The notes under the pieces are model-generated. The model was not told where the DNA came from, made no database searches, and saw nothing but the letters and a program-made list of their open reading frames with translations. A stretch of 63,989 nt of DNA, filler included, from Stramenopiles sp. TOSAG23-3 (taxonomy: Eukaryota): the NCBI GenBank assembly GCA_900128585.1. It is 17 parts of 17 records of this genome, joined end to end, with 100 filler letters (N's around TTAATTAATTAA, not from the genome) between each part and the next. Parts side by side here need not be neighbours in the genome. Positions count along the whole stretch, not along the records: positions 22,600 to 30,889 come from LT643041.1; 16 more parts are not named here. One strand, 5' to 3'. This document shows positions 6,765-39,073 of the stretch, one piece after another. The translations under genes were made by a program, and so were the position numbers. How positions within the stretch are numbered: position 1 is the first letter of the stretch; each line of letters opens with the position of its first letter.

Positions 6765-6858
6765 AGAAGAAGAATGAGAAAGACGAAGAAGAAAGAAGAA
6801 GAAGAAGAAGAAGAAGAAGAAGAAGAAGAAGAAGAAAGAGGAAGAAGAAGAAGGAAAA
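6765..6858 (+). repeat. (GAA)n microsatellite
   Basis: Directly visible. Confidence 0.9.
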
Positions 6859-14436: not shown

Positions 14437-17400
14437 ATGAATGTTTTATGCACAGGAGTCGCACATACTCTGATATTGTCCGATAAAGGGGAAGTGTATT
14501 CTATCGGATCGTCTGAATATGGGCAGTTGGGAAGGGATGTGGTGGGAGGGAACTTTCATGCCCCTGTTCGCGTCGTTGGGGCACGGGCCAACGACAAAGG
14601 GAAGTACTATTTTGGGGAAAAACGAATTGTTGCGATTTCCTCTGGAGATTACCACTGCGCGGCCGTAGGAGTGGATGGGACCCTTTATATGTGGGGGGAC
14701 GCAAGTGATGGAAAACTAGGTCATGGAGAAGAGGATTTAAATGAAAGCGGCAATGAGGGCGGTCGCAGATCTCATTCAATGCCGTGTGTTGTCCACGCAT
14801 TTTTGCATGCCAATTTAATAACGCATGATATAACCGGAATTAAAGTGAAGGTCCGCGGAGTTTCGTGTGGTAGCTCCCACACACTGTGTGTCGATTATGG
14901 TGGAGAAGCGTGGAGCTGGGGCGATGGAAAGTATGGGCAGTTGGGGCATGGGGATACATCCTCGTGCATATTTCCGAAGGAGCTGTCTGACTTCAAAAAA
15001 ACCAAAATTGCTCAAATTTCAGCCGGTGCCAAACATTCATTAGCACTTTGTGATGGTGGCAAGCTATTTAGTTGGGGGCATGGGGACCATGGGACATTAG
15101 GAAACGGTGGTTACGACGGGTCCCCTCGGCCTTCCGCGATAAAATTTCACGATTTGCGATTATGTTATTTTGTAAACATTTCTGCCGGTGAAAGCCACTC
15201 GGCCGCAGTGACCGGCGAAGGTGCTGTATATACTTGGGGGTCAGGGGCTTTTGGCAAGCTTGGGCACCAATCGTTTGAAGATGCGCTTGTGCCAAAGCTG
15301 GTCGAAGCGCTGACAGGGACAACGATAGGCATAGCCAGGTGTGCCCCATTTCACACCATATTCGTTACAAAAATATTGAAGGGCGATTCCTCTGGCGGGC
15401 TAGTTTATGCGTGTGGGTCTGATCAGTACGGGCGTTTGGGCAATGGTGGCGACGCCGAAGACCCCGGTGACGTCAGGGACGATGAAAACAGCGGGGACAA
15501 TGGGGATTCGGCTGTTGGAAGTGAATCCGTACCGCTTCCTTGCGAAGGCTATATGAGCGCGAACCGCGTCACGTGCGTTGCAGCCGGCGCTTTTCACAAC
15601 GTAGCATGTAGTCTTGACGGGACACTTTGGGGGTGGGGGTTTAGCGGTCACGGTCGCCTAGGTATGGAAGTGTTCGAATCGATCCATAGGCCCTGCAATT
15701 TGGAAAACTTAAAGCACATTCCAGTCACGGGGAAAACCCTTGTTGGGAAAGATGAAGAAAACACGGGAGGCGCAAACATGAAAGACTTGGCGCTTTCCCA
15801 AAGTTTTCGACAGCGATTGATTTGTAGCATATCGTGTGGCGCCCAACACACTGTTGCGTTGACGACAGGGGGTGGTGTATGGGCATGGGGAGAAAACGAT
15901 TGTGGTCAGCTCGGCCTCAATGATACGGAAGACCGTCACACGCCCTGCGTTGTGACAGAGAATATTGGTGAATTGGTTATCCAGGGAATAACAACTGGTT
16001 CGCAACACACGGTTGTGTGGCAAAGAGAAGAAAGCGTGTTCGTGTGGGGCCGCGGGACGGAAGGCCAATTGGGGTACGGAAATGCTGGTATTGAGAATAC
16101 TGTAGATATCCATGTTGGAGATGAGTCTTCGAAACCACAGCGGTGTCCTTTGCCGGAAAACGTGTCGATCAAAAGCGTGACAGCGGGAGACTCTCATACG
16201 CTGTTTGTTTCCCGGCAAGGAAAAGTGTATGCGTGCGGAAACAACATGTCAGGGCAGTTGGGGTTGGGCCAAGACAAGAAATGCCAAGTGAAACCAAAAC
16301 GGGTCGACGCAGGGTTGAAGGAAGAGACGATTGCCGTCATTTCCGCAGGAAACGCACATTCCGCCGCAGTATCAAGCCATGGGAAGCTGTATACATGGGG
16401 AGCCGGTTGGCATGGCAGGCTTGGCCATGGCAATACGAAGAACATGTACATCCCAAAAACGGTGTCTTGGTTCGGGTATAAAATTGTGACAGATGTAGAG
16501 TGTGGCTTTGCCCACACGCTCGCCTTGACAAGTGATTGCGTTTTATACGCATTTGGAAAAAATGACCAGCGCTTGGGGGCAAAACACCGGGAAGACTTGG
16601 AACATTTACCCCATTGCTTGGCAGAGATCCCAAATGTAGTTGCCTTTTGTGCTGCAGAAGATCACAGCGTTGCGATCTTGAAGACCGGGGAAGTGATCGC
16701 TTGGGGGCTGCAAGGGAAGTATAGAAAATTAGGAGATTACGTACAACAGGGGGAGAAGGAAAACGGCCCCCAGACGGTAGATCTTAGCGACGGCAAAGGT
16801 GACGAAGAAGAGAACAATTTCAAGACGGTATACCAGGAAGGGTCCGTAATCCAAAAGCAAAAGGCGTTGAATGCCGGTGCAGACATTGCCCCGGGGGTGC
16901 TTGATCGGAGGGCGGTCTCGTGTTATTCAAACCACACGGTAGTACTAGACGCCGAGGGAAGAGTGTACAGTTGGGGATACAATGGCAGTGGAAGATTGGG
17001 GCACCCGGGTCTAGCCGGCCACACAGTTGTAAACGCGAAAAGAATCGCCGGGTTTAAGACTTTATCAGAGTGCCTCCAGCAGGCAGACAACCCTAACGGG
17101 GGGAATAGTGGCAGCAAAGACACGCAAATTGAAGCCAAGCCTGCGGCAAACGATAGTGCAATGCAAGCACGTGCGGCTCCTTCGGGTGGTGGCAAAAATG
17201 GCGGCGAAGGTACTGAAAAAGAAGAAATGCATCCCGATGATCATCATCTAGACATCAGCGAACTGGAAGCCTACCTTGAAAATATACGCTCCCACAAGTC
17301 CTTGGAGGTAAGCGTTACACACGTAACCGGACTGATTCGCCAAGAGCCAAAATCATGGTTTGATGAAAATATACATGGCATTGTCGATGACTTAATGGTG

Positions 17401-20382
17401 GTGAAATCTCGGCTGCAAAAACAGATCGACGTGTTTGTGAATACAGAGAAGCAAATATCTCACATAGAGGACAAAATTCGCCTGGCGATGTCGTCTACAC
17501 AGCGCCACATCTTTGGGATATCAAAAGAAAACGACGCAAGCGTTCCACGCTTTCTCAAGCAGCATTATTTGAAATTTCAAAACCTGTTCTCTGTGTTACT
17601 GATGCACCCATGTTACATTGAAACGATTTATAAAACTCTAGTGATGAATCATTGGTCATATTTTAAAACAGAACCCATTGATGAGAAAATGGAAGCGGAG
17701 AGGAAGTCGCAGAAAAAAATGGTGACGGTAACAGTAGGGCAAGATAGCACAATTGGTCGCTGGTTGGAGGAAAAATACAGTGAAGCGGACAAAAAAAGGA
17801 TTAAGTTGCCTTTGATGTCTAGAAATGCCGTGTTCATGTCCCCAGACGAGCATTTCAAGTACATTTTTCAATTTATAAAATGCATCTATGCGGATTTAAC
17901 GGATAGGCACGTTTCGTTGCGTTATTTGTGCTTGATGAAGGTTATATTGCGGGGTGAGGTTCATGCTCTGGTGCAAAAGGGGGGGTCTATCGAACAGTTC
18001 TCGATGCCGCATAACAGCCTTTTTGTCAAGTTAGTAAAACACTACGCCGTCGAGTGTGGCGTCCAGAAACTTTTATGCGAACAGCTGGAATCCTTGGCCC
18101 GTGACATGTGTTGCCAATCTTTGTCAGGAGACACAGTTGCAGACGCAAACAGCAAATTTAAAAATACCGGAGGCCTGTTCGACCCAATTTTTGTCGGTGT
18201 AGCTTTGGATTTAAATTTTGACCCACTGCATTTGCAAAGCACGTACAAACACGACAATTCGGAGAACTCGGCGCAATCCCAATCTGAACTTTATGATACA
18301 CTTCGAACCCGTGCTTACGAGGACTCTAAGCACAGCGATGGCGTATTGTCAACACGTGTGAACCGAGGTGTCACGTCGTTTATCAACATTTTAAATACAG
18401 CGATTGAGGGCTGCTGCCAAGCGTTTCTGCTCTTGCCGCACGGCATTAATTGGATATTTAGTGTCCTGTACAACCAAATTGCAACGGAGTACATTGCTCG
18501 TAGGGGCCAATCCACAACGATAAATTTCATAAGAGCACAAAGCAAGCGCGCGGCGCTGCGCTTCTTTTTCTCCCAAATATTGTGCCCAATGATCTCCGAC
18601 GAAGCTTACTGGCGTGAAACAGCAGCCAAAAATCGCTGGGGCTTGCCGCTTCACGAAAAGGACCAAACCAACGGGGCGGATAACGAGAAAGGTCGGTTCT
18701 TGAAACAATTTTGGATGGCCCAAGAGTTTAACCACTTTCGGAAGAATATTCGAATATTATGCCGCGCGTTAAACCGCGTTTGCACTCGCGACATGCACCC
18801 CGTTTCGATGCCGTGGTTGAAAGGTGTAAACAATGCCGTGCGTAAGTTGAACGGGCAAATATTGGAATCCTTCGACGCGATCGTGAACGGTTCTGGCAAC
18901 CATTACGAGCTGGAGGTGTACTTATACAACGCAATGTTCAAAGAGTACACGAGAAGACACCCATTATTCATCTCGGTCCCTTTACAACTCGTGGAGTACA
19001 TCCAGTGGGTATTTTTGTTTTTAGGAGCGGATGTGTGGAGCCCCCGAGACATGGTAAACGATATTTTCTGGGGGGAATCGGGCATGCTGGGGAACGAAAG
19101 TCAGCTGACATTTGCGCGTCAGTTCAACCCGAGGAGTCAGAACTTTGACTACTCGGAAGGTGACATCATCAGCCTCAATTTCAGCGTCGATCTCCGCATC
19201 GTGGATGGGGACGCCGCGGAGTCGAATACTGTCAGTTCTATACAGGATGCCAGGATTTGCAACAGTTGTTCGTGCATTCTGCCGGCGAAGTTAGCCGCGG
19301 GCTATTCTGTCCGAAGCGCAGACAGGCATGCGTACGAAGAAGTCGTGGTAGAGGAGCATTTGCGATTGTCCATGCCACCCAGCACAGGGAAATTAGACGA
19401 TGCAAGCTTGAAAGAGGAAGCGCGAAACCGCGAAGCCGCAAGGCGCGAAATCATCGCAAGCAGGGCGGACGAAAGCCGCTGCCGAAAGCTGTTTTCAAAA
19501 CTATTGAAAAAGGAATCTTTTTTTCCTGAAGATATCCCCCAGGGGGACGTTTTGAAGGGCTTGATCGAATACATGCACACGCGCCTGGCGGAGGAAGAGA
19601 AGAGTGGGGATTTTTCGTCCGCAACGGAATCCAACGTGCTGCTGGAGCAGTTCCATAACATAGAGTTGCAGGCGAAAGCTATTGGGGACTTGCTCTTCGA
19701 AATGTTGGAAGAACTTTTGTTTCGGAAAAAGCGTGCCTCACGGTACGCGTTGGAGAAACGGATGCTGGTGGCTTTAAAAGCAGAATACAACAACTATGCG
19801 GGATACATAGAGAAGAAGCGCAAAAGTTCGTTCCACTTCTTGGACATAATCAGGAACGGGGTTGAAACGACCCAGAACAGAACAATCGTCAGCAAATTAG
19901 CGACGAAGAAGAGGATCAAGTTGACGCCTAGCAATCTGTGCAAAAGCTGCCACACGAAACACCCCGCGCCTCGGTCCATTCTGAACCACTACCAGCAGGT
20001 CAAAGGGATTTTCCAATCCTTCTCTTATGCGTACTTGCTCAGCAAAGACGTGATCCGATTTTTGGACTTGGGGCCCGCGATTGCCGTGGAAGAGAAAGGG
20101 GATGATGAAGGGTCGACGCGTACGGTGCAGCCCCTTGATTTCAAGCAGATAACCTCCAACCTGGTGTATGAATTTCGCAGTCGAAACGGGGAAATGAGTG
20201 TCATGGCAACGTACAACAAAACGTACGTCATCGATCAACTTTATTTTCCGATTTCGGAAATCTTAAAATGCAAGCGCTTGCGTATCCTCGAATTCAAAAC
20301 GGCAAACTCGCTCACCACCTTTAATATAGATCAGTTCTTGCGCTTGATTGAAGACATCGTCATGCTTAGTCTATTGTTGTAA
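14437..20382 (+). CDS. Large protein: two RCC1-repeat blocks + IQGAP-type RasGAP domain + RasGAP_C domain
   Basis: About 14-15 RCC1 repeats (SCGxxHT...WGxGxxGQLG) to about 17060. Then FQNLFSVLLMHPCYI, LPHGINWI, FFFSQILCPMI, RKNIRILCRAL and a C-terminal FSYAYLLSKDVI...FNIDQFLRLI, paralleling IQGAP GRD/RGCT motifs. Start is uncertain (possible upstream exon). Confidence 0.85.
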   Translation: MNVLCTGVAHTLILSDKGEVYSIGSSEYGQLGRDVVGGNFHAPVRVVGARANDKGKYYFGEKRIVAISSGDYHCAAVGVDGTLYMWGDASDGKLGHGEEDLNESGNEGGRRSHSMPCVVHAFLHANLITHDITGIKVKVRGVSCGSSHTLCVDYGGEAWSWGDGKYGQLGHGDTSSCIFPKELSDFKKTKIAQISAGAKHSLALCDGGKLFSWGHGDHGTLGNGGYDGSPRPSAIKFHDLRLCYFVNISAGESHSAAVTGEGAVYTWGSGAFGKLGHQSFEDALVPKLVEALTGTTIGIARCAPFHTIFVTKILKGDSSGGLVYACGSDQYGRLGNGGDAEDPGDVRDDENSGDNGDSAVGSESVPLPCEGYMSANRVTCVAAGAFHNVACSLDGTLWGWGFSGHGRLGMEVFESIHRPCNLENLKHIPVTGKTLVGKDEENTGGANMKDLALSQSFRQRLICSISCGAQHTVALTTGGGVWAWGENDCGQLGLNDTEDRHTPCVVTENIGELVIQGITTGSQHTVVWQREESVFVWGRGTEGQLGYGNAGIENTVDIHVGDESSKPQRCPLPENVSIKSVTAGDSHTLFVSRQGKVYACGNNMSGQLGLGQDKKCQVKPKRVDAGLKEETIAVISAGNAHSAAVSSHGKLYTWGAGWHGRLGHGNTKNMYIPKTVSWFGYKIVTDVECGFAHTLALTSDCVLYAFGKNDQRLGAKHREDLEHLPHCLAEIPNVVAFCAAEDHSVAILKTGEVIAWGLQGKYRKLGDYVQQGEKENGPQTVDLSDGKGDEEENNFKTVYQEGSVIQKQKALNAGADIAPGVLDRRAVSCYSNHTVVLDAEGRVYSWGYNGSGRLGHPGLAGHTVVNAKRIAGFKTLSECLQQADNPNGGNSGSKDTQIEAKPAANDSAMQARAAPSGGGKNGGEGTEKEEMHPDDHHLDISELEAYLENIRSHKSLEVSVTHVTGLIRQEPKSWFDENIHGIVDDLMVVKSRLQKQIDVFVNTEKQISHIEDKIRLAMSSTQRHIFGISKENDASVPRFLKQHYLKFQNLFSVLLMHPCYIETIYKTLVMNHWSYFKTEPIDEKMEAERKSQKKMVTVTVGQDSTIGRWLEEKYSEADKKRIKLPLMSRNAVFMSPDEHFKYIFQFIKCIYADLTDRHVSLRYLCLMKVILRGEVHALVQKGGSIEQFSMPHNSLFVKLVKHYAVECGVQKLLCEQLESLARDMCCQSLSGDTVADANSKFKNTGGLFDPIFVGVALDLNFDPLHLQSTYKHDNSENSAQSQSELYDTLRTRAYEDSKHSDGVLSTRVNRGVTSFINILNTAIEGCCQAFLLLPHGINWIFSVLYNQIATEYIARRGQSTTINFIRAQSKRAALRFFFSQILCPMISDEAYWRETAAKNRWGLPLHEKDQTNGADNEKGRFLKQFWMAQEFNHFRKNIRILCRALNRVCTRDMHPVSMPWLKGVNNAVRKLNGQILESFDAIVNGSGNHYELEVYLYNAMFKEYTRRHPLFISVPLQLVEYIQWVFLFLGADVWSPRDMVNDIFWGESGMLGNESQLTFARQFNPRSQNFDYSEGDIISLNFSVDLRIVDGDAAESNTVSSIQDARICNSCSCILPAKLAAGYSVRSADRHAYEEVVVEEHLRLSMPPSTGKLDDASLKEEARNREAARREIIASRADESRCRKLFSKLLKKESFFPEDIPQGDVLKGLIEYMHTRLAEEEKSGDFSSATESNVLLEQFHNIELQAKAIGDLLFEMLEELLFRKKRASRYALEKRMLVALKAEYNNYAGYIEKKRKSSFHFLDIIRNGVETTQNRTIVSKLATKKRIKLTPSNLCKSCHTKHPAPRSILNHYQQVKGIFQSFSYAYLLSKDVIRFLDLGPAIAVEEKGDDEGSTRTVQPLDFKQITSNLVYEFRSRNGEMSVMATYNKTYVIDQLYFPISEILKCKRLRILEFKTANSLTTFNIDQFLRLIEDIVMLSLLL

Positions 20383-22599: not shown

Positions 22600-23296
22600 T
22601 CCATCGTTTTCCCAGCATTTTTGAGTTGAATACAGTGAAAACTTCTACACTGGAATTGACAGAAAATAAGTGGTTTGGCCAGGAAAAGCTGGCGTTTGAG
22701 TTGTATATGATCATGGTTCTAAAGTTCCGAAAACATTCCGGTACACGTTGAGTATTGGGACTAATCATATTGTACTCCCAGTGTTGAAGCCGTTCAAAAC
22801 GGCAGAAATACTCTAAAGGCACATCAAATTGCTTTCTATCAGAGTGGCTGTAAATGAGTATCTCCAACCTATTCGCCTGGTCAAGCACAACAAAACTAAA
22901 TTGTTTAGGCTCTCGGATTGGCCAGTTCAACAATTTGATATTGTTACTGTTCAGTAAAAGTTTTTTGGTGCTGTTGTATTCCTGAAAATAATCTGCTACG
23001 TTGGGTTTGATCTGCGGAAGTTCATGATTTGAAGAAACGTCCAACACTCTCAATTTTGGCCATTTGCCATCTAAACTGTCGTCCATGTTGAATCCAAGGT
23101 TTTGAAAAAGGCTCGACAGATCGTTAGAAGAGACGTTCAGCACTTCCAACGACTGCTGCAGCACCTCAAGAATAACAGAGAAGAAGAAGGTATTGAAAAT
23201 GACGACTGCTGCTGGACGATGCGCCGGGTGTTGTTCGTATGTATCGTAAGTCCTATACCATTCCAGTGGATTAAATTTCACAATGCATAAGAGCAT
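22600..23296 (-). pseudogene. Leucine-rich-repeat protein fragment, probably degenerate at the 5' end
   Basis: LEVLNVSSNDL, LRVLDVSSN and LLLNSNNI LRR motifs; all upstream frames close within about 100 nt; runs into the contig edge. Confidence 0.5.
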
Positions 23297-23564
23297 ATAT
23301 TTATGCCCACTGCCCCTTTCTATCAGTGACCATGACCGTGAACATTATCAGACGGAATCTTCTCACCCCTTAGAACAATCAACAATTGGACGGGAAACAA
23401 AAAAACATTCCAAACTCTCGTCATATCACACGTCAATTGCGATGCTAAGATTCGCTTTACAAATAGCGTTTTTTATAATATATTCCAACTATTTCATCCT
23501 TAGCTGCAAGTTTTATTTTAAAGAAATTGTTCGCAGGACGTCTTTAAAATCAGTATAGACTAAC

Positions 23565-25739
23565 ATGTCGACGGTCGCGCAGCTTGCAGGGAACGTATTT
23601 TTGGAGGGTGGGAAAAGCATTATCCCGTCAGCATCCCGGGTATTGTGCCTGTCAGTAGTTGCTCTTGGGGAGAAATTCGGAGCTATGAGGTTGTTTCCGA
23701 GACAATCTTCGATCGACAATGCTTTTAAGTGGACTGTTGCGATTGATATTGCTGCTTGGTTAACTATCTCCTTAGCATTCTGTAACACGGTGATCGAGGA
23801 ACGGTTTCTTTCCTTTTTCGGGCTGAGCGGCCCGCTCCACCTCCCGTTGATATTTTTCCCCCAGCAGGCTTTGTTTCTTCTGGCGTTGAGCTTCCGCCGC
23901 GACATATCCTTTCTTACGACATTTTATGCAATGTGCGGACTCGCCCTTTTGGTAGCAACGAACACGCACTACGAGTGGATGGTGTCGCCAACTCACGCTA
24001 ACACCAGCATTGCAATTATCGCCAACGATTGGGGCAGTAATGTTTCCGAAAGTGCAAGTGGATCGGGCGAAGGGACACTTTGGATTTACTCGGACAGGTA
24101 CACATGCGACGAGGGATCAATGTCCGCAAAGGCAGTCCTATTTCCAGCAATTTTACTGTTCATCATGGCAGCCTGGAACCGTTTGGACAAGTTAAGTCTC
24201 CTCCTGTTGCTCTGGTCTTCGATCGGGGTATCGAATTATAGAAACTGTACTAACGATTTGCCAAACACAGGGGTAATGAAGCTGATAGCTCAGATTGGCG
24301 GCTTTTTCATTATGAAGCTTTCTTCCGTTCCGACTGAAACTTTAAGGTCCTCCAACCAGCGCTCCAATTTTGCGCTACCCAAATGTGCGGACGATGTGAA
24401 GAATATTAGCATCGTTGTGGACGGTTTTATTGGACCTGACGCTGTAATATGCGGGATTTCACGTTCTTACGAAGCTTGGATTCACGAACTGGTTCGACAG
24501 AAACGGAACGTTACGTTGTATACCGCATTCTCCGCGGCAAGTATTGAGGAATACTTTGCTGAAAACGGCACAAAGCTCAAAGCTTATGAATTGGACACCG
24601 TCGAAATGTGTTACGTAACGCAAACGTACCATGCAACTCGCACAAACTACACAAACATAAGGCTCATTTCCAAGAATTTTTTGAGAGAGCAACCCGATGT
24701 GGTCCACGTTATTTTTGACGGGAGTTCTGTTCCCATCTTCAGCTGGGCTTGCGCTCACATGCAAATTCCAATTGTAGGCATTATTCATACAGATCTTTCT
24801 GTCATTGTCGAACGAAATGGTCTAAAGCTAGTTGGGGATCTTACTGTTAGCGGACAGAAGCTTGTGGGGTACACCTTGGACAGCGTTGCTACCCGAAGTC
24901 GTTCGTTTGCGCTTCGAATGGTCCAAATGCATCAGTGGAAATGTGACCATGTCATTAAGCCGCACGTCAAGACGGACGTGTTCATGCCCGTTGACGATTA
25001 TCGAACGAAAAGACTTCGAAACACGCTCATGTTTGGTGAACACAACAACGTCAACTCCAACATGCTGTTGGTTTACGCCGGGCGGTTGGATCTTGATAAA
25101 AGAGTGGACGAGATCATAAAGCTTGTTGAGCGAGTGGACGGGGTATATATTGCATTGGTAGGACATGGTGTCATGGGAGAAGACTTGAAGCAATTGCACG
25201 GAGAGAAACGTCGTATCTACTGCAAACCTGGCTTTGTTACCCACGAAGAATTAGCCCTCTATTACAGCTGCTGTGACTTGCACATCTCTGCATCGCAAAT
25301 GGAAACGCTGGGCAACACTGTCTTGGAGTCGTTGGCGTGCGGTACTCCTGTAATTACCCCGCGGGCACAGGGCTTTGTAGATTCCATTGAACATGGAGTG
25401 AACGGTCTCATGTGGGAGCCTTCAGAAGATCTATCAGACGCCGTGAGGCTTCTGAAGCTTTTGCGCGACGACAAATATCTACGGAAAACCTTGGAGAAAG
25501 GCGCATGCGACAGCATTAAGAACCTGCATGTTTCAAAAACGGTCAGTGACTTGCTTGAATGGTATGCAGATGCGAGCATCAGTAGACAAACGAAAACTTT
25601 TTCAATTATTCGACTAATGCTCTGTAGTTTTGTGTTGTTGCTTATGACGATGTTCGACTTTTTATGCATCCCCATTGCCAAACGCTTGCTCGAAAGGTTC
25701 TCGGACAAAAGCGAAAGAAAAAAGTTTAACAAATTGTAA
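23565..25739 (+). CDS. GT4 (GT-B) glycosyltransferase, SQD2/PimA-like glycolipid synthase type, with N-terminal multi-TM domain and C-terminal TM
   Basis: PDVVHV, IIHTD, LLVYAGRLDLDK, IALVGHG and ETLGNTVLESLACGTPVI (E-x7-E motif); about 250 hydrophobic N-terminal residues. Confidence 0.88.
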   Translation: MSTVAQLAGNVFLEGGKSIIPSASRVLCLSVVALGEKFGAMRLFPRQSSIDNAFKWTVAIDIAAWLTISLAFCNTVIEERFLSFFGLSGPLHLPLIFFPQQALFLLALSFRRDISFLTTFYAMCGLALLVATNTHYEWMVSPTHANTSIAIIANDWGSNVSESASGSGEGTLWIYSDRYTCDEGSMSAKAVLFPAILLFIMAAWNRLDKLSLLLLLWSSIGVSNYRNCTNDLPNTGVMKLIAQIGGFFIMKLSSVPTETLRSSNQRSNFALPKCADDVKNISIVVDGFIGPDAVICGISRSYEAWIHELVRQKRNVTLYTAFSAASIEEYFAENGTKLKAYELDTVEMCYVTQTYHATRTNYTNIRLISKNFLREQPDVVHVIFDGSSVPIFSWACAHMQIPIVGIIHTDLSVIVERNGLKLVGDLTVSGQKLVGYTLDSVATRSRSFALRMVQMHQWKCDHVIKPHVKTDVFMPVDDYRTKRLRNTLMFGEHNNVNSNMLLVYAGRLDLDKRVDEIIKLVERVDGVYIALVGHGVMGEDLKQLHGEKRRIYCKPGFVTHEELALYYSCCDLHISASQMETLGNTVLESLACGTPVITPRAQGFVDSIEHGVNGLMWEPSEDLSDAVRLLKLLRDDKYLRKTLEKGACDSIKNLHVSKTVSDLLEWYADASISRQTKTFSIIRLMLCSFVLLLMTMFDFLCIPIAKRLLERFSDKSERKKFNKL

Positions 25740-26499
25740 AACAGACTTCGTACAAAGCAAAACCGAATTAAATTAAATAAGTTTAGAGAGAATATACTCT
25801 GGTAACATTAAGAATTATAATATAAGTTTTAAAAAAAACTAATTTTATAGTATGTTTTAAGACTCTCAAGATTATCCCAATTGTAGAACTGATTTATTTC
25901 TGCAACTATGATAATAAAAATCACAAAATTCAAGTCGGTCAAAACCTCCTTTGTCGTTCCTACGATATTTTAACTTTCGATCTTGGTCCCAATCGTAATC
26001 CTCGAAATTTTGTACCCTCGCGTCTGGTTGTGTTCCGTAATTTACGTGTTCGCTTGATTGGGAACTAGACTGTGACTCCAATTTCTCCGAATCCTGGCCA
26101 GTACGTCTGCCAAATATGCATCCGGTCCAATTGTTGGATTGAGCGACTTTATTGCCAGTTGAATAGCGTCCCCGGCTATGTATTGGTCTGGGAATAAAGT
26201 CGAGATAGCAGCTATTTATTATAGGCGAGTTTCGGAATTCAACAAAATTCTCCAGTTGAAACCATTTTTCTACCCCCATGTTCGTGCGGATGTGTGCAGT
26301 TAGTGATCGAGTTTATGATTAAAATGATATTTTTACATCATAAAATTATCGCAAATTATCGCAATATCTTTTTAGTATCATAATAAAACTTTAGAAACTA
26401 CAATTCCCTAAACCATAAAAAGAGGCTCCGATTCCTTATATACTTATCTTGTGATCATCCAAACAACTTGCTACAAACGGTCAGGGGACCGGACGCCCT

Positions 26500-27519
26500 C
26501 TACAACAGCCTGTCTCCAATCTTGACTTTACTCTCGTACCCGCACAACGATGCCACTTCAATATCTCTTCTAACTTTGAGTTCGGCATTCCTTGGCACCA
26601 CCAAAGCAATGGCACTGCCACCCATGTGAAAACACCCGACCTCATCAAGAATCTCGATTTCATCGCCTTCGTTAAATTTTACGTCAATAGAATCAATACC
26701 AATACCTCCAACGACCATCATTGCGACATGGGTTTGCAGTATATGAGAATAGATAAGGTACAATACGCGCCGATTTTCTGTTAAAATGTCCCAGCCAGAT
26801 TTTAGGGCAAAAGGTCGAACACTCTCACTGTACCGCAGCGGCTCCATGTAATCAACCCGTTTTACGACCGTCCCAGATACGGGTGCATAAAATCTGTGAA
26901 TGTTGTACACATCTAACTTAAAAATGTACATATTGGCGCTCATGAATTCATTCAAATGCCCACCTGGTATCCCCATAGATTCCAGCGTAAAACCCTTGTC
27001 CTTCACCCAAAATGTCTGCGTGTTCATAATTGAAGAGTACGCTACAACTGTTCCTTCAGCAGGGGAGACCAGTGGTTCCTGAGTCGAACGGTTCAATTGA
27101 ACTGGGGAACGTGTAAAGAAGTCGTCTATACTCGTGTAGGAATGAATAGGAAAAGAACCGCTGTCTGGGTCAACTCCATTATCGTTTGCCCACTTCACAA
27201 TTTCGTGGGTTGGGCAAGGAAGTTGTTTCTGATTGAAGTACCATCTCGCAGCTTTCTTCGCAAGTCTGTGAACAAAACTGCTTGGGACTCCAAACCAATT
27301 CTCGTCGTAGAGTGCCTTAAAACCAAGCCCGGGTAAAAATCCGAAAGGTTTTTGGGAGTTCAACTTGTAGCTTTTTGTTATGTCATCAAAGGATACGACG
27401 CACGGTTTGCGCAAGAATTCTAAAAAATGTTTCAACCAAACAAGTACTACTGCCGTCACTAGGCCTAGCACGTAACCGTGAGCGAATGTGAGGTCGTCCA
27501 CCAAAAGCATATCTGACAT
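26500..27519 (-). CDS. Phosphatidylserine decarboxylase family (pyruvoyl) proenzyme, divergent, with N-terminal TM anchor
   Basis: YTSIDDFFTR, LVSPAEG, IHRFYAPVSG, ENRR, VGG..IDSI, GCFHMGGSAIAL (cleavage Ser codon 26614-26616), VKIG. Confidence 0.9.
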   Translation of the reverse strand: MSDMLLVDDLTFAHGYVLGLVTAVVLVWLKHFLEFLRKPCVVSFDDITKSYKLNSQKPFGFLPGLGFKALYDENWFGVPSSFVHRLAKKAARWYFNQKQLPCPTHEIVKWANDNGVDPDSGSFPIHSYTSIDDFFTRSPVQLNRSTQEPLVSPAEGTVVAYSSIMNTQTFWVKDKGFTLESMGIPGGHLNEFMSANMYIFKLDVYNIHRFYAPVSGTVVKRVDYMEPLRYSESVRPFALKSGWDILTENRRVLYLIYSHILQTHVAMMVVGGIGIDSIDVKFNEGDEIEILDEVGCFHMGGSAIALVVPRNAELKVRRDIEVASLCGYESKVKIGDRLL

Positions 27520-27864
27520 TGTACACTTAAAATGTACGAAGGCTGCGGTCGTGAACTATTGCTCCTCCCCGCGTTGCTATTTGAATATCGTCGTTTAACC
27601 GACAAAGGCTCGCGTGGCGTGCTGGCAAGCGCTGAGATAGAGTTCAAAGGTTCAAAGCGAATTAGTTTAATATTAAGTATTAATTAGTTAATTATTATTA
27701 AAACCAAACTCCTCCAGAGAAGAAGAACTCCAGTGCATGCTGCCAAAATATTTTCATAAGTATCCTTTGTATAATATTCATATACTTTTTATCTAGTAAT
27801 TATTCTACCATGAACCATGGTATACAATGTCGTGGAACACAGGATAAACACACCATCTAATTAG

Positions 27865-28097
27865 GGGCTACACACTCCCGGGAATCTCGGGAGGGATTTT
27901 TAGCCGGGAGAGCGGGACGGGAGAGGTTTTTCATCGGGAAATACCATCAAACAACAGGTAATAGCATTGATTTGGTTCTTTCGGGAATGTCGGGACGGGA
28001 GGCGGGAGGAGGGAGGAGGAAATAACATCAATTAATTCCCGGGAATGTCGGGACGACGACGGGAGGAAAATAGTGCCGGGAATGACCACCAGCCTTA
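27865..28097 (+). repeat. CGGGA-motif cluster (14 copies, one strand) between divergent PSD and methyltransferase genes
   Basis: 14 CGGGA counted between 27879 and 28081. Confidence 0.85.
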
Positions 28098-28334
28098 TTA
28101 GCACACCAACAAATGTATCATTTGTAGTATGTACAAAACTATATATTTTATTTATCCTGTATATATTACAATAGTCTTTTACTAAAGGGTGACATTCATT
28201 TCTTGAAATGTTCTCTTATGAAGAATTAAGACCAATCTTTGCTAAAATAGCTAGAGAAAGATAAAAAACCGATTCCAACAAGTCACTAAAAGTTACCGCG
28301 TCAAATTATACTGAAAAGTGTAACGTCCCACAAA

Positions 28335-28964
28335 ATGGCAGACAACTTTACGACTATTTTTACGGACCCCGCACCGGTAGCTTATTTAAATGTTGACGAG
28401 AAGATGCGAAACAATCTGTTGGCAATTGCTGTGATAATGTTCATAGAACATGTAGGATACTCCATAATTTGGTTGAAACCCGTCTTGCTTTCTGATCGTA
28501 TTCGAGGAAAAAATCCAGTGGAGTGTGTGCATGCATTTCTTGTGTCACAAAAGTGCATGCAAGCGTGCGCTGTTGGAATGTACTACTTGCAGAACAAAAG
28601 TCATTATATTTTACGACAAACATTCGCAGAGATCGTCACATTTGGCGTCACACTGGGATTGCTAATGATTGCGATCGGGCAGCTATTGAATTTCAGTGTA
28701 TACAAGGCAATAAAAAAAGAAGGTGTGTACTATGGTGTTAGGTTTGGATACCACATTCCATGGGTCACAAGCTTTCCCTACAACTTGAAGTGGTTAAGGC
28801 ACCCTCAGTACATCGGATCGCTTCTGACCTGGTTCGGGCTGGCCTTCATTGCCCTGAGTGTCTTTGAATACAATTTTCACTGCACCCAATTTGTTTTAGG
28901 AATTTGTGTAATTCAAATTTTAAATTACGGGGGAATGATGTACATTGAAAATATAGCTGTGTAG
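28335..28964 (+). CDS. Phospholipid N-methyltransferase (PEMT family; plant PLMT/yeast Opi3-like)
   Basis: GQLLNFSVYKAIKKEGVYYGVRFG..IPWVTSFPY...RHPQYIGS; several TM helices. Confidence 0.92.
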   Translation: MADNFTTIFTDPAPVAYLNVDEKMRNNLLAIAVIMFIEHVGYSIIWLKPVLLSDRIRGKNPVECVHAFLVSQKCMQACAVGMYYLQNKSHYILRQTFAEIVTFGVTLGLLMIAIGQLLNFSVYKAIKKEGVYYGVRFGYHIPWVTSFPYNLKWLRHPQYIGSLLTWFGLAFIALSVFEYNFHCTQFVLGICVIQILNYGGMMYIENIAV

Positions 28965-30610
28965 AGCAGCGTTCTGTAAGAACTTAGCAGGGTGCCAAAA
29001 ATCGTTCGGGGTCCCAATTTGTACGACAACATTAGAATTTTTCGCTCCCGTCTTTTCTTTGCTTTCTCAATTCCAAAACGTTCGTTTGATTTTTAGTTTT
29101 GTAAATCCCCCAACCACAACGGTAGAACACAGCGTAGGATGAAGCCTCTACGCTTGAGGGAAAAATAAAGATATATTTTTTTTTCGTTCGTTCACAAATC
29201 TCATTTTATAATACAGAACACGTTCATTTTGTTGATGAAGATTCATAAAATATAACAACCCCTATAATATTAAATAATAATACTGCTGTGTTTATTATAT
29301 ACTGTATTAATATTAATTCATGTAAAAATATTATTAATAATTGAATCTTTGAAAAAATGAATCTTCACAACAACAACAAATAATATTTATATTATCTTCA
29401 TCAACAACAACGAGAGACGACCGACAAAATTATTTTTTTTAAAATTATAATTATATATTGTGTATAATTGGAATAATATTATACGAGTAGGGTTAATATT
29501 ATTTTTTAACATCGTCCAACAAGGAATAATATAATTAAATAATAATAATAATAAAATTATAATAATATAATTTCTACAACAGCAGATGCACAATTTCAAC
29601 TGTTGGGGTTTACTATGTTGGTTGGGGTATGTACGGAATATTTCATCTAAAAAGCAACGGACAAATGCCATAACGGGATTGGACGAACATAATATTTAGT
29701 CCATTGTTAAGTGCCATTGAACATTCATTTCTCACCTGATTTGACTTTGTTTTTGCTTTTGTCAGATTCATGCCTGTCTTTCGTCGATGTATGCGCTGCG
29801 GTAAAACCTGTGTATGGTCCACATATCAATTATTGGAGCACGTGCAAGGGTGTCAATCTAGCCCCTCCTCTTCGCCGCAAATGATTGATGCTGTGTCTTT
29901 AGAAACAGGGAAAAAAATGAAAAATATTGAACCTCTAAATTTGAATAGCGTTGCCCGACTATCGCAGGTACCTGCAGCAACCGGTAGTCCTCGGAGTACG
30001 GATTTTGCGGGATCGCGGAGCAAGGATGTAACAGGTTCGCATACCCGATGCAGCCAAGATCACAAGCTGTAGACAGTGGTGCTTGCACCCGGAGGTAATC
30101 TTTGTATGGATCGCTCCGAGTTGACGGAACTGTTACATCCTTGCTCGCACGTTATCTCATGCTGTGGTCACAGATTGACGTTTAAGGGCATGTGCTTTGC
30201 ACCGCGCTCGCTATGCACCGGCACTGTGAAGTTGATTTGCGAGCTTACACAGCAGTTAGGACCAGCCTCATCCCTCCGGCTAATCGTTGTCAACACTGAA
30301 GGTTGCGATCGTCTTGGTGGCGCAGACCCGAGACGTGGGTGTGGGGAGCGCCTGCTCTTGTCGTGTCTGTGCTGTTGTCTGCCGCCGCACCGAGACAATG
30401 TTGGCGTGATGAATTACCTCAGCCGCAAGGCGCCCTCCAACCCCTTCTCACCGAGGGTGTAATAAAAAAAATGGAGCTATTTATACATATGGCCCGCTTT
30501 TTGAGGCCAGTTTAAAATTAGGGTTTTTCGTGTTTTCTCCTTAAAAATTACAAAAATTAAGCTTACATATTATATCCTATCAAAATAATAAAATGACCCT
30601 TCGGGACGCT

Positions 30611-30889
30611 TGGCAAGGGCCTATTTCTATAATTTACCTAATTGTCGATAGAATGGAAGGAGCCGCTCGGTAGAGATTCTAAGCCTTCACTACTCTACAC
30701 TCAGGCCAGAATATTGTAGTGTATTAAGTACATAAACCTAATAAAAATAATGGCCTGAGTGGTGCGATCAGGCGAATGGGCACAGCATGCTACGCTATGC
30801 TGTGTTTATATGAAGCCTTAGCAGCACCCACGAGCGGCTCCTTCCATTCTATCGACAATTAGGTAAATTATAGAAAAAGGCCCCTGCCA
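30611..30889. mobile_element. Fold-back/MITE-like element with 59-bp inverted repeats
   Basis: 30611-30669 and 30831-30889 are reverse complements with 2 mismatches; the interior is non-coding; the right arm ends at the contig edge. Confidence 0.7.
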
Positions 30890-31016
30890 NNNNNNNNNNN
30901 NNNNNNNNNNNNNNNNNNNNNNNNNNNNNNNNNTTAATTAATTAANNNNNNNNNNNNNNNNNNNNNNNNNNNNNNNNNNNNNNNNNNNNCCCCCCCTCCT
31001 CCACAACCATCCCCTC

Positions 31017-32126
31017 TCACGCCCAGATCTTCATGGACGTGTCCCAGCTTCCCGTACAAACGGCGTCCCCGTTCGGGGAGACGTTCACGCACGAGACTCG
31101 GTTTTCGTGCGTCCGCAGGAACGATCCAGATCCAAGGCGCTTCGGGGACTTCCCTGGGCTCAGGGTATCCCACACGCTGCAGTTGAAATCGTCCTGTGCC
31201 GCGAACAACAACCGGCCGCTGAACGAGCTCGATACGGACGTGATCCCGCTGATGACCCCTTCGTCCACGAACTTTGCGAGCTCACGGCCGCACCGGAGGT
31301 CCCACACGCGCACGGACGCGTCGTCGGAGCCGGTCGCGATCGTGTGGCCATCGTTGAAGAACTCGACGCAGTTTATGTCCGCCTCGTGGCCCCAGAGCTC
31401 CATCGTCGGGGTGCTTGGGTGGAGCCGAGTGTCCCACACCTTTGCGACCATGTCGCAGGACCCGGAGACGAACTGTGCCTTGTTCGTCTTGCTCACGGAT
31501 ACGCTCATGACGTCGCTCGTGTGCCCGGTGAACACCGCGACCGATTTCCGAGTCGGGATGTCCCACAGCATGCACGTGTGGTCTCCGCTGGAGGTCAAGA
31601 TCTGCCGGTCGCTGATGAACCGGCAGCAGGACAGGTACCCCTCGTGCCCCGACAACTCCGCGGACGGCCCGCGCTCCGACGTCCACGTGTCGTTCAGCAC
31701 GTAAACGGAGCACATGTTGTCCAGGCCCCCGCACGCTACCGTCCTGGCCGTCTCCGTGGACTGGTCGAACGCGCACGTCATCACCCACGCCGACCGGAGC
31801 GGGATCGCCCACAGCTTGTTCGTCGTCAGGCCGTCCCAAACGATCATCTTCCCGTCCTGCGACGCGCTCACGAGGCGGCGGGAGTCCCCGGACCAGTGCA
31901 ACGAGTACACTTTGCCAAAGTGCCCCATAAGTTTCTTTCGCATTTGAAACTTTTCCGGGGACGGAGGCGTCTGCTCGGACGATGCCTTCGACTTCGTCGC
32001 CGCCCGGAGCTGGTTGTGCGCATGGACGTCCGGGTCCTCAAAGTCTACCTCGTCGGACGTCGGCAGCTTTTTCAGCTTTCGCTGCTGCTTGACTTGGTCC
32101 TTTAACGTGGACGGGTCGGTCGACAT
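31017..32126 (-). CDS. Heterotrimeric G-protein beta subunit, paralogue 1
   Basis: [13 protein letters not shown]...LVSASQDGK...[12 protein letters not shown]...[35 protein letters not shown]; likely ATG at 32126. Confidence 0.95.
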
Positions 32127-33785
32127 TCCTTCCAATCCTCTAATACGCAATCGTTTATGCCGTTCCTTCGATTGATTGATCGATCCTACGCCCAAAGATA
32201 TCCAATGTATACCGTTCAACACCAATTACCGCGGGATGAAACCTTCCTGTACCGGACCCGAACCCAGTCGTACCGATTCAATGCAAAAGTGCAAAAAGAC
32301 GCAAAATCACACACAAGCGGGGGGCGTGCAGTGATTCTCGCTCATTCGTTTCGCTTCTTTCGTTCCATCATTGAACAAATTCGGTCATTACTCGGCATTC
32401 CTATTCGTTCATTTACAACAAATTATCGAAAATTTTCGTCACTTTCCGCAAAACATTTCGTTTAAAAATGTACGAAATACACCACACAGCATAGGGAATC
32501 AAGAAGTATCTGTTATGTATCACTGCCCCATTTATTTAGTATACAAAAACGCCTATGTAAAGTATCGAACAATATCAACTATCCAATAGTACCTTGTCTT
32601 AAATTATCCAAGCAACCGATTGTTAAATATGTACTTGTAGTGTCTTAGAATATAATATTTGATAGAATATCCTGAATGAATGATGATCTCAACGAGGAGC
32701 CACTCACTCAGCCAATGATTTGAGGAAGACAGCATTGGATCGAGAAGTCTGGGAAAGAAATGGATGCTGTGTGTATGTAATTGAATTGTAGAATAAACTT
32801 CAACACAAAATTTGAGTTTGAGTTTGAGTTTGAGTTTGAGTTTGAGTTCGAGTTTGTTAATATTAGGAATGTGTAACCCGTTTGTTTGATTTTCTTGGAG
32901 ATGTTATTGCAATTGTTCTGATTGATATATATTGTTGGATACTTTCATAAACAAAATATGCTGTTTTAGAAACTGAGTTCTCAGTTGTTCTCGTGGCGAG
33001 CAGAGCAGTCAGTCGCGTGGTGTTTTTTTGGTAATAGTCCGAAATCAGGTATGTATCGAGTGATTCAAAGAAGGTGGACGTTTGCTTCTCTTTGGTTTGA
33101 TAATGTAAATGAAGGTATTTGAATTTTTACGATTTGATTTAAAATGTAGAGAAATGGGAAAGACCTTTTTTGTCTTTTTGAAGATGTTGTATATCGGCTA
33201 ACTGTTGAATCCGTTCGAACGATTAAACGAGAAAGTCCGATCGATCAAATGCTATTCTACGCCCTGTTTCGGCGAACTTTTCCGACATTGCCAAACATCC
33301 AAAAGGAAAGAAACGTACAATTTCTTACATAAGAAGAAAGAAGAAAGATCTCGCCAGATCTCGATTCGATTAACTTCCCCAGACGGAAGTCTAGTCAGTC
33401 GTCTTCTTGGTTCTTGGTTCTTGGTTCTGGTTCTTGGGTCTTGGTTCTTGGTTCTTGGTTCTTAGTTCTGGCTTCTTTCGGGCGTCTTAAAGTGTTTGCC
33501 TTTCTTTTGTTTCTTCTGTTGTTTCTTCTGTAGTATGATCATCCCCTACCTAAACTTAACTAAACTAAAGAAATTCTTTCTATTCTTCTTTCTATTCTTC
33601 TTTCTATTCTTCTTTCTATTCTTCTTTCTATTCTTCTTTTATGTTTTTATATATTTAGTAGAAGTTTATTAAAAGAAATACCTCTTTCTCTTTCTCTCTC
33701 TTCTTTCGGCTAAAAATAGAAATGAAGGCACAACAGGGCACAACAGGACATAACAGGTTAGCTTTTTTAGGCTAAAAATAGAAAA

Positions 33786-33929
33786 GGAGTTACAACATCA
33801 TATAACAGGACATAACATAGAATTAATGAAACAAGTTACAACATAACATAACAGGACACAACATCGAATTAATGAAAGAAGGTACAACATCACATAACAG
33901 GGAATAACAGGGAATTAATGAAAGAAGGT
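33786..33929 (+). repeat. About 46-bp degenerate minisatellite (3 copies) among short tandem repeats in the G-beta intergenic region
   Basis: Unit approximately GTTACAACATCATATAACAGGACATAACATAGAATTAATGAAA[C/G]AA; nearby (TTTGAG)n 32811-32853, (TTCTTGG)n about 33404-33463 and (TTCTTTCTATT-like)n about 33573-33640. Confidence 0.75.
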
Positions 33930-34261
33930 TGAATAGAAGAATATTGGCATTTGACCAACATCCATTGATGTTATTTGGAATACTAAATAGCATAGATCAT
34001 TATACCAATCTTTATCAAACTACAACAACTCAACTCAAAACAAACCAAAACGAAACAAAACAAAACGAAACAAACAGAAGGGAATCCAATCTCCATCTCC
34101 TTCGTTTTACCAGCTAGTAAATGTTGGATTGCTGCGATCGAAGCGCTTGACAGCCACCTATTTGTTTCCTGTGAAACCGTTTGTAGACCACCGTCTGCTA
34201 CACTCCTCACCACCGTGCCTTTCTTTACTGCATCGCAAACGACGAAGTTCGACCGATCAGT

Positions 34262-35416
34262 ATGGCGACGATAGAAGAGCTTAAGGCCAAGCAGCTGGAG
34301 CTCGAAACGCAGGTCCAAAGGCTTAGGAAGCAAAACTCGCTGGACGATGGGGATAGTGCAGAATACCCAGGGTCCCATATCTCCGAATCGTACGTTAAAG
34401 TAAAAACCTCGATGGAAGGCGCGCAGATACAGGACTTTCCAGAGCAGAACCATATGGTCCAGCGGAGGAAGCTGCAAGGCCATTACGGGAAAGTGTATGC
34501 CATGCACTGGTCCGGGGACTCGGAGCGTTTAGTGAGTGCATCGCAGGACGGGAAGCTGCTCGTGTGGAACGGCCTTACGACCAACAAACTGTTTGCCATC
34601 CCGGTGCACTGCCCGTGGGTAATGACGTGCGCGTTCGACCAAACGGACCCGAAGAGTAGGAACGTGGCGTGCGGAGGGCTAGATAACTTATGCTCCATTT
34701 ACATCTGGAAGGGGCAGAACCCAGAGTGGGAGAACGCCCCGACGGACCCGTCCGTGGAACTGTCCGGGCACGACGGGTACCTGTCCTGCTGCCGGTTCGT
34801 CGATAGCAACAAGATACTGACGTCCTCCGGGGACGGGCGGTGCATTTTGTGGAACTACGCAGGGAGCACCCAAAAGAAGATCTGCACCTTTCGGGACCAT
34901 ACCTCGGACGTCATGTCCGTCAGCATCAACCCGAGGGACCCGAACCAGTTCGTGGCCGGGGACTGCGACAGCACCGCCATGGTGTGGGACATCCGGTGCC
35001 CGCAGCGCGCCACGCATGTGTATAAGGGCCACGAGTCGGACATCAATTTCGTCGACTTTTTTCAGGACGGCCGCACGTTCGCCACCGCATCCGACGATTC
35101 CTCGTGCCGGCTGTGGGACATTCGAAGCTACCGCGAACTGAAAAAGTTCCAGGACGCGCCAGAGGGGCAAGACCCGATCATGTGCGGCGTCACGTCCGTC
35201 GCGTCGTCGTCCAGTGGCAGGCTCCTGTTCGCAGGGTACGACGACTACAACTGCCGCGTCTGGGACACCGTGGGCGACCAGGGGTTCTTTACCCTGAAGT
35301 CTGGCATATCAAAGTACACGCACGAGAACCGCGTCTCCTGCGTCGGGGTGTCGCCCGATGGGAACTGCCTTGCCACCGGCGGGTGGGACACCCTGCTGAA
35401 GCTTTGGAGCCGGTAA
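34262..35416 (+). CDS. Heterotrimeric G-protein beta subunit, paralogue 2
   Basis: N-terminal coiled coil; [60 protein letters not shown]. Confidence 0.96.
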   Translation: MATIEELKAKQLELETQVQRLRKQNSLDDGDSAEYPGSHISESYVKVKTSMEGAQIQDFPEQNHMVQRRKLQGHYGKVYAMHWSGDSERLVSASQDGKLLVWNGLTTNKLFAIPVHCPWVMTCAFDQTDPKSRNVACGGLDNLCSIYIWKGQNPEWENAPTDPSVELSGHDGYLSCCRFVDSNKILTSSGDGRCILWNYAGSTQKKICTFRDHTSDVMSVSINPRDPNQFVAGDCDSTAMVWDIRCPQRATHVYKGHESDINFVDFFQDGRTFATASDDSSCRLWDIRSYRELKKFQDAPEGQDPIMCGVTSVASSSSGRLLFAGYDDYNCRVWDTVGDQGFFTLKSGISKYTHENRVSCVGVSPDGNCLATGGWDTLLKLWSR

Positions 35417-35771
35417 GGGAACACACACACTGTACATGCAAAACATTAGAGGGTGAAAGCCTTTGCAACGAACCGATTGGGATTTTTATAGAGAGAGATA
35501 GAGAGTGGGATGAAAACGAAATTAGTTTTCACGCATTTAATTTATAAAAGGCCACAAAAGTTCATTTTCATTAGATATTATATAATTAGATTTAACTTCT
35601 CCTAGACAAAACTAAAACTTTTTAACACAAAATTAAAAATTATCTTGAACCAGATCTTGAAGGAATTGTAACCCCCCCCCCATTTACGTAGTGGTGCGCC
35701 CACAAAATTAATTTCACGAAAAAACACTTTCGGTGTGGTGAAATTAAAACCAGGCCACCGCCCACCGGCCC

Positions 35772-38700: not shown

Positions 38701-39073
38701 CGGGTCGTCGCGCCCCGGGAGGCTGGACGCGATCGGGACCCCAGTCTTGGGCTTGGCCACGTCGACGGGGGTGGCAACGGCGGTGGTGGCCCGTCGCACT
38801 TGGGGGGAGAATATGTTGTTGGACATTATGTTCTGCTCCCATTGGTGGTATATTTCCTGTTTCAAGTCCATGCACTGGCGTTTCATCTCGCCCTTGATGT
38901 CCTTCGTCGCCCTATTGTTCTTCGTCGTCGTCCCCGCTCGTCCTGCCAGTGCTGCTGCCCCCCCCTGCCGCCTGGCCCCGCTGCTTCTTGCCGTTCGGCT
39001 TTCCTTTCCCGTTGTTGTTTGCTATAAGTTTGTTGTTTGCCGCAGAAATAGACACCCGTTGGTTCCGCCGCAT
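35772..39073 (-). CDS. Cytosolic carboxypeptidase (CCP/Nna1/AGTPBP1-like tubulin deglutamylase, M14D) with two apparent frameshifts at G-runs
   Basis: FESRFESGNL, TQWFYF, PYTYSDL, ARVHPGE, PMLNPDGV, DLNR, DFHGHS, YTMEASF. Track ORFs 38912-39103, 35602-38886 and 35772-36374 join into one frame if one G is removed at each of 38958-38965 and 36420-36426. Confidence 0.9.

Follow-up and report, generated by a model that had tools for sequence, protein, structure and literature searches.

A linked set of lipid-enzyme genes in a stramenopile assembly and a possible route to the betaine lipid DGCC

A 63,989-nucleotide stretch of the Stramenopiles sp. TOSAG23-3 assembly (GCA_900128585.1), hereafter the window, carries genes for a GT4 glycosyltransferase, a PSD-family pyruvoyl decarboxylase and a PEMT/PLMT-family N-methyltransferase, all on the 8,290 bp contig C2319 (window positions 22600-30889; Table 1). 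By a little, we lean towards the reading that these linked genes encode three of the at least four to five steps in the synthesis of diacylglyceryl carboxyhydroxymethylcholine (DGCC), the middle steps being supplied by an aminotransferase::Mpo1-like enzyme encoded on contig C4772 of the same assembly. This reading is favoured because a metagenomic locus (L009) links a GT4, a PSD of the same clade, an aminotransferase::Mpo1-like gene and a PEMT-family gene, because the assembly also encodes the fourth enzyme, and because relatives of the GT4 and the PSD apparently share contigs in ENA. It is favoured also because genes 6818 to 6820 are induced by phosphate shortage in Thalassiosira pseudonana, a DGCC maker without BTA1, because a Sphingomonas plasmid has psd, aminotransferase, Mpo1-like and N-methyltransferase genes in a row, because the pocket of the PSD clade deviates at Tyr137 and His147, and because separate PLMT-type and Agt/SQD2-like paralogues are present in the assembly.

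Betaine lipids are of three kinds. DGCC, one of these, occurs abundantly in haptophytes, dinoflagellates, and coral or clam symbioses. Nuclear magnetic resonance and mass spectrometry place a carboxylate on an acetal carbon that is joined to glycerol and choline (available text of PMC10362313), thus DGCC is phosphatidylcholine (PC) with CH(COO-) replacing PO2-. Its synthesis and genes are stated to be unknown in the available text of papers from 2017, 2021, and 2023 (PMC5516115, PMC8227023, PMC10362313). In the literature searched, which left most subscription papers outside, there was no described DGCC gene, cluster, or route, nor the T. pseudonana identifiers discussed below. The enzyme families and the lipid are already known; what is new is a eukaryotic cluster with a PEMT and a phosphate-responsive run of genes in a DGCC-making diatom.

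The linked genes and their counterparts elsewhere

The assembly is eukaryotic, with 28.4 Mb in 7,088 contigs. The window joins 17 contig pieces with N44-12 bp-N44 spacers; open reading frames (ORFs) touching a spacer are cut and no linkage extends across one. An earlier note on this DNA had placed three lipid-enzyme families on C2319, with the PSD and PEMT genes divergent from an 815 bp region. Both claims hold, as the ORFs are uninterrupted, each product passes its Pfam cut-off, and the two genes diverge as described. The region between them may contain a common promoter, judging from this arrangement. It also has copies of a 17-nt repeat, at 27876-28053, that are possibly regulatory or the remnant of an element. 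The 3' ends of the GT4 and PSD genes converge, 760 bp apart.

There are 14 PF00534, four PF04191, and one PF02666 matches in the assembly. With approximately 10,400 genes, a figure scaled from 18 genes counted by hand over 49 kb, the chance of both neighbours is about 1e-6 as a post-hoc estimate. The interval from PSD to PEMT is tiled by overlapping contigs, and the C2319 stretch is also present in marine metagenomes. The three genes share a third-position G+C content (GC3) of 0.46-0.54 with the genes on C4772 and C6519. Contigs from RNA libraries, which may contain DNA, map to each of the three genes. One sample (X13/X14) covers PSD and PEMT without the GT4, and X17 and X18 cover the GT4 only (3' half). 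The PSD-PEMT intergenic region is left mostly uncovered by these contigs, where missing cover is no evidence.

The window PSD matches PF02666 at 98.6 bits (cut-off 22) and no further Pfam domain; a membrane helix lies at its N-terminus. Its 19 relatives are all environmental (41-54% identity). When 1.84 billion representatives were searched with a profile, a small top group was followed by long proteins, which seem PSD2-like from our reading of their length and motifs. A quick tree (112 of 163 trimmed rows, PsiD itself being absent) places the window PSD in a 23-row clade (SH-aLRT, an approximate likelihood ratio test, 100), apart from the PSD2-like proteins, Escherichia coli psd, and Sphingomonas asd. 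Residue roles in the E. coli enzyme, including the phosphate site of Tyr/Arg137, Ser166, and Val167, are given in the available text of PMC7952604. By E. coli numbering, the equivalent of catalytic His144 is present in all 23 rows and that of the self-cleavage Ser254 in 22, the remaining row being truncated. At position 137, 21 of the 23 carry Lys, whereas the 138 other rows that have a residue there all carry Arg or Tyr. His147 is replaced by Tyr in 22, Asn168 by Arg in 23, and Asp90 by Glu in 22, while at the Asp142 position 14 rows have Asn and nine keep Asp. The retention of His144 and Ser254 alongside changes at 137, 147, 168, and 90 suggests that this pyruvoyl enzyme is probably active and that its pocket is altered. 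The best score on an NCBIfam PSD equivalog model is 104.7 bits, below the cut-off of 371, these models being prokaryotic. Among solved structures, the best sequence and fold matches are PsiD-like decarboxylases (PDB 8zia, 8x4q, and 9jer), although these are weak (profile E 7e-15, TM-score about 0.33) and the structure model is modest, with a predicted local distance difference test score (pLDDT) of 70.6, and contributes fold only.

The first 270 or so residues of the GT4 form a hydrophobic, helical domain without a Pfam match, and there is a hydrophobic helix at the C-terminus. Its model (pLDDT 70.9) has a GT-B fold with MshA and BshA as the best fold matches, and none of the NCBIfam glycolipid-synthase cut-offs is reached. 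Seven close relatives were found, all environmental (39-63% identity). The N-terminal membrane domain (23565-24392) is conserved in six of these seven, one of them a fragment, with two conserved Cys; it may represent an enzyme domain not yet recognised. The 14 GT4 matches in the assembly include a separate protein on contig C108, which looks closer to the Agt/SQD2 type by its motifs.

The window methyltransferase (PF04191, 49.6 bits against a cut-off of 25) is not the sole PLMT-type copy in the assembly. A second paralogue, on contig C6519, is presumably the more plant-like of the two, by its motif. The remaining two PF04191 matches resemble ICMT and DUF1295 proteins.

A scan of metagenomes identified seven PSD loci, six of them in the PSD clade, with L009 the only long one. 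Within 8 kb it contains a GT4 (-), a PSD of the same clade (+, 45% identity), an aminotransferase-III::Mpo1-like gene (-), and a PEMT-family gene (+). The L009 GT4 is without the N-terminal membrane domain. Its score against the window GT4 is 83.6 bits, as compared with 10.2 bits at most against the other GT4 loci of the assembly, and it is sister to the window GT4 clade in a 21-row quick tree that contained no characterised SQD2 or Agt sequence (SH-aLRT 98, long branch). The L009 aminotransferase is a membrane-anchored protein of 723 aa with a fused C-terminal Mpo1-like domain. Its orthologue in the TOSAG23-3 assembly, on the 3.4 kb contig C4772, has 46% identity to it over residues 6-714. 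As this gene is off C2319, the fourth enzyme was invisible to the earlier note. C2319 and C4772 have no common DNA, so adjacency of the two is unsupported. The aminotransferase's cluster in a protein atlas is 88% eukaryotic, with Bacillariophyta commonest, which suggests that L009 is diatom-like.

A PSD relative and a GT4 relative are twice listed on ENA contigs of equal size (72,424 bp and 70,847 bp). We read these as the same two contigs, each carrying both genes at unspecified spacing. A third coincidence, at 3,406 bp, was not counted, being too short to hold both genes comfortably. In Sphingomonas plasmid NZ_CP155753.1 (7090-11182), asd (psd), a homologous aminotransferase-III, an Mpo1-like gene, and a PmtA-like N-methyltransferase gene are in a row; there is no GT4 within 8 kb of this locus in the one plasmid record examined. 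A Bradyrhizobium plasmid has an Mpo1-like gene alone among transposases. With the PSD and GT4 as queries, plasmids yielded distant matches only, and an insensitive pattern scan of prokaryote genomes gave no relatives of the aminotransferase protein or the PSD alignment. A giant-virus origin of the genes is unsupported, as equally insensitive pattern scans of viral contigs with the PSD, GT4, and aminotransferase alignments found no relatives.

A possible route to DGCC and its rivals

The product of a glycosyltransferase is an acetal. A pyruvoyl decarboxylase requires an alpha-amino acid and a PEMT requires an ethanolamine-type amine. Yeast Mpo1, an iron dioxygenase that shortens 2-hydroxy acids, is a loose precedent only. 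In the proposed route, the GT4 would add a uronic acid or a pentose to diacylglycerol (DAG), with sugar C1 becoming the acetal carbon. The Mpo1-like and aminotransferase domains would then carry out oxidative ring opening between C2 and C3 and amination at C4, giving DAG-O-CH(COO-)-O-CH2-CH(NH3+)-COO-, a look-alike of phosphatidylserine (PS). The PSD would remove CO2 from this serine-type intermediate and the PEMT would methylate the resulting ethanolamine-type one, so that these last two steps would mirror the conversion of PS through phosphatidylethanolamine (PE) to PC on a carboxylate mimic. For a pentose, or glucuronate minus C6, C1 would be the acetal, C2 the carboxylate, and O5-C5-C4 the choline arm, with C3 lost as CO2. 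The second step is the least certain. It probably needs a further oxidase or dehydrogenase, none having been found so far, and a variant would draw the arm from serine rather than from the ring. Such a route would account for four enzyme types travelling together, and for a PSD that rises during PC removal.

It is in T. pseudonana that lipid and expression data can be compared. This diatom swaps PC for DGCC under low phosphate (available text of PMC8301168 and PMC5825098) and is without a BTA1 homologue (available text of PMC3315573). In the supplementary table of PMC3315573, a sheet of 9,573 rows, the low-phosphate values are 5.3-fold for THAPSDRAFT_6818 (unannotated), 4.6-fold for THAPSDRAFT_6819 (PSD), and 325-fold for THAPSDRAFT_6820 (a sulfolipid-synthase-like glycosyltransferase in the sixth row of the table), all with a false discovery rate of 2e-8 or lower. 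The flanking genes 6816, 23402, 23403, and 23404 are at 0.9-1.3-fold. With THAPSDRAFT_6817 annotated as a phospholipid methyltransferase (PEMT), the annotation order of 6817-6820 is the gene order of L009 if 6818 is the aminotransferase. The NCBI gene identifiers form two interleaved series, 6817 and 6819 as against 6816, 6818, and 6820; we infer that these may be the two strands, in which case the pattern is as in L009. The authors of PMC3315573 read 6820 as a sulfolipid gene, in the available text. It is one of two K06119 genes in the diatom table of the PMC6738920 supplements, the other being 38775, which is at 2-fold under low phosphate and not significant. Identifiers 6817-6820 were unlisted in the supplements of PMC3478156, of which all but one file were covered.

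The broader proposal is that the missing DGCC pathway is a eukaryotic cluster whose enzymes reshape a glycolipid into a carboxylate-based PS mimic, which recruited PSD and PEMT enzymes then finish. The pathway would be common to diatoms, apparently non-photosynthetic marine protists, and bacteria, although the bacterial PSD and methyltransferase would come from different lineages. Genes 6817-6820 would be the copy open to testing, and 6820 would be something other than a sulfolipid synthase. We regard this as evenly balanced between true and false. If it is true, candidate genes are named for DGCC in a diatom with genetic tools and the masses of two intermediates are predicted, the serine-type one about 1.94 Da above DGCC and the ethanolamine-type one 42.05 Da below it; ocean data gain gene markers for phosphate-stress lipid substitution, the gene read as a sulfolipid synthase has another role, and marine protists have an additional lipid biosynthetic gene cluster.

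Several observations weigh against a DGCC route. In the diatom, 6817 is not induced (1.06-fold), and identifier order and annotation are the basis for the presumed orthology of 6817-6820 to the module, for their adjacency, and for the identity of 6818. Gene 6818 is labelled 'hypothetical' in both expression tables, and the 6817 gene model may be fused, its listed peptides being, in our reading, unlike a membrane methyltransferase. Over the diel cycle (PMC6738920 supplements) 6817-6819 rise together in the light and 6820 falls. The PSD gene 6819 is the sole K01613 in the same diatom table and no second PSD was found in the TOSAG23-3 assembly with three queries, thus the window PSD may simply be the cell's ordinary PSD. 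Its clade keeps the phosphate-site Ser166 in all 23 rows and Val167 in 22. The Mpo1-like domain matches are below the Pfam cut-off, and the proposed enzymes explain the ring opening and the oxidation steps only in part. The methyltransferases of L009 and the window are of different subfamilies (23% over 82 aa), and the relative orientation of GT4 and PSD differs between these loci. Four of the six same-clade PSD loci have unrelated neighbours on the sampled side, including the closest relatives, L007 (PIG-U) and L008; L012 adjoins a ferredoxin gene, the long ORFs beside L008 and L011 match neither GT4 nor PEMT, and L010 is too short to judge. The Sphingomonas asd, one bacterial example on a long branch, groups with E. 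coli psd in another lineage. Reports of DGCC are mainly from microalgae (available text of PMC10362313), and light-harvesting protein genes have no match in the TOSAG23-3 assembly, which is incomplete.

Labelling work also reportedly places free choline or ethanolamine in DGCC. There is, in addition, a BTA1-like DUF3419 (PF11899) gene on contig C3634 (3562-4632), the only match in the assembly, therefore the organism has another betaine-lipid route. The presence of this gene in an apparently non-photosynthetic protist is an observation in its own right.

An earlier interpretation of the trio had two branches. The phosphorus-free or betaine-like branch has gained support and can be named as DGCC, and the plain PS-PE-PC plus glycolipid branch is now one of the rivals below. 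The linkage of the trio recurs in one of the six same-clade PSD loci (L009), four others having different neighbours. Separate PLMT-type and Agt/SQD2-like paralogues are found elsewhere in the assembly, as separate housekeeping genes would be, except in the case of PSD. Co-expression with phosphate is known for the presumed T. pseudonana counterparts alone, of which 6818-6820 are induced.

It is possible, although we consider it unlikely, that the genes form a single phosphate-stress pathway with a different product, an amine-bearing, N-methylated glycolipid on DAG or ceramide. The module is found in a Sphingomonas record, DGCC reports are mainly microalgal, the solved relatives of the aminotransferase include sugar C-6' aminotransferases, and a single oxygenase-like domain seems too little for both ring opening and C4 oxidation. 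However, an intact amino-sugar offers no alpha-amino acid to a pyruvoyl decarboxylase, and DGCC is made without BTA1 in the only organism for which lipid and expression data are both available.

Also unlikely, and ranked just after it, is a phosphate-stress island of ordinary steps, in which PSD and PLMT make PE and PC and the GT4 makes sulfoquinovosyldiacylglycerol or glucuronosyl-DAG as an end product. The single PSD in the assembly and in the diatom orthology table fits this, as do the K06119 label and published reading of 6820, the catalytic residues and some phosphate-site residues kept in the PSD, and the unlike fold-changes and diel phases of the diatom glycosyltransferase and PSD. It leaves unexplained the linked aminotransferase::Mpo1 gene and the rise of a PE- and PC-making enzyme while PC is removed. 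The second K06119 gene (38775), the separate Agt/SQD2-like GT4, and the failure to reach any NCBIfam PSD or glycolipid-synthase cut-off also argue against it.

That the neighbourhood arose by chance, or through a mis-join at the GT4-PSD repeat, is highly improbable: the repeat is unbridged among the contigs listed and close PSD relatives have other neighbours, but GT4 adjoins a same-clade PSD in L009, relatives of the two lie on ENA contigs of equal size, the diatom identifiers run from 6817 to 6820, the chance estimate is very small, and contigs tile PSD to PEMT.

Other features of the contig and the window

Table 1. Features of contig C2319, in window positions
Feature	Position	Strand	Remarks
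GT4 glycosyltransferase	23565-25739	+	724 aa, uninterrupted ORF; PF00534/PF13692 above cut-off
PSD-family pyruvoyl decarboxylase proenzyme	26500-27519	-	339 aa, uninterrupted ORF; PF02666 above cut-off
PEMT/PLMT-family membrane N-methyltransferase	28335-28964	+	209 aa, uninterrupted ORF; PF04191 above cut-off
PSD-PEMT divergent region	27520-28334	.	815 bp between starts; three copies of 17-nt repeat
High-copy short repeat between GT4 and PSD 3' ends	25830-25930 (limits approximate)	.	depth peak, many loose ends
LRR-like ORF, outside module	22600-23296	-	truncated by contig end; weak LRR_4 match, E 0.004
High-copy element at contig end, outside module	30611-30889	.	79-nt inverted arms

The repeat between GT4 and PSD has a depth of hundreds to thousands in its bin in all four DNA runs. 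It is unbridged among the 32 contigs listed, with 443 more beyond these, and is the weak point of the assembly join. A second depth peak is at about 30590-30889, and the element at this contig end appears, in our reading, to resemble a miniature inverted-repeat transposable element. The mobile-element debris described previously is thus present in the form of high-copy repeats and a 79-nt inverted repeat; the small ORFs in the repeat areas have no Pfam match. The leucine-rich repeat (LRR) gene flanking the module had been called degenerate, a description that is not upheld, as the ORF is open, is cut by the contig end, and has a single LRR_4 match, which is below the cut-off.

There is no 18S match in the assembly. 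Judging by the missing light-harvesting genes, the source organism may be a non-photosynthetic marine protist. GC3 ranges from about 0.47 to 0.91 across contigs (30990-39278 and 56137-63989 compared with 22600-30889), reflecting strong compositional patchiness or a mixed assembly. Elsewhere in the window, two G-protein beta-like WD40 genes are head to head at 31017-32126 (-) and 34262-35416 (+), the first with 372 bits on WD40_Gbeta. A 1,981-aa protein at 14437-20382 appears by eye to contain RCC1-like repeats, with a long uncharacterised region on their C-terminal side, and a PB1 and SPRY protein at 53924-56035 is truncated by a contig end.

Comparison with known lipid systems

The PS to PE to PC route uses the same PF02666 and PF04191 families in the same order of action, and the His144 and Ser254 equivalents are kept. 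The window PSD differs in its separate clade and in the replacement of Tyr137 by Lys and of His147 by Tyr, and the methyltransferase is a second paralogue. Here the two accompany a GT4 and an aminotransferase::Mpo1-like enzyme, and the proposed substrate is phosphate-free.

With BTA1 and BtaAB, which make the betaine lipids DGTS (diacylglyceryltrimethylhomoserine) and DGTA (diacylglycerylhydroxymethyltrimethylalanine), the proposed route would share a zwitterionic, phosphorus-free substitute for PC and N-methylation as the last step. The BTA1 head group comes from the aminocarboxypropyl group of S-adenosylmethionine, whereas that of the proposed route would come from a glycoside. There is no DUF3419 gene on C2319, the BTA1-like gene of the assembly being elsewhere.

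In PlcP-Agt remodelling and SQD2 (available text of PMC4796936), a GT4 also acts on lipid under phosphate shortage, and glucuronosyl-DAG is a plausible first product here. In those systems, however, the pathway stops at the glycolipid. A clade of its own and an extra membrane domain set the window GT4 apart, and C2319 is without a phospholipase gene. The PsiD-like decarboxylases, as the best solved matches, are PSD-fold enzymes that accept substrates other than PS; the window PSD differs in its N-terminal membrane helix and falls nearer the PSD2-like and bacterial rows, PsiD being outside the tree.

The Sphingomonas locus is like the eukaryotic form in that its aminotransferase and Mpo1-like parts are homologous. 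The eukaryotic form differs in having these two fused, a PSD of another lineage, and a methyltransferase of the PEMT family rather than the PmtA type.

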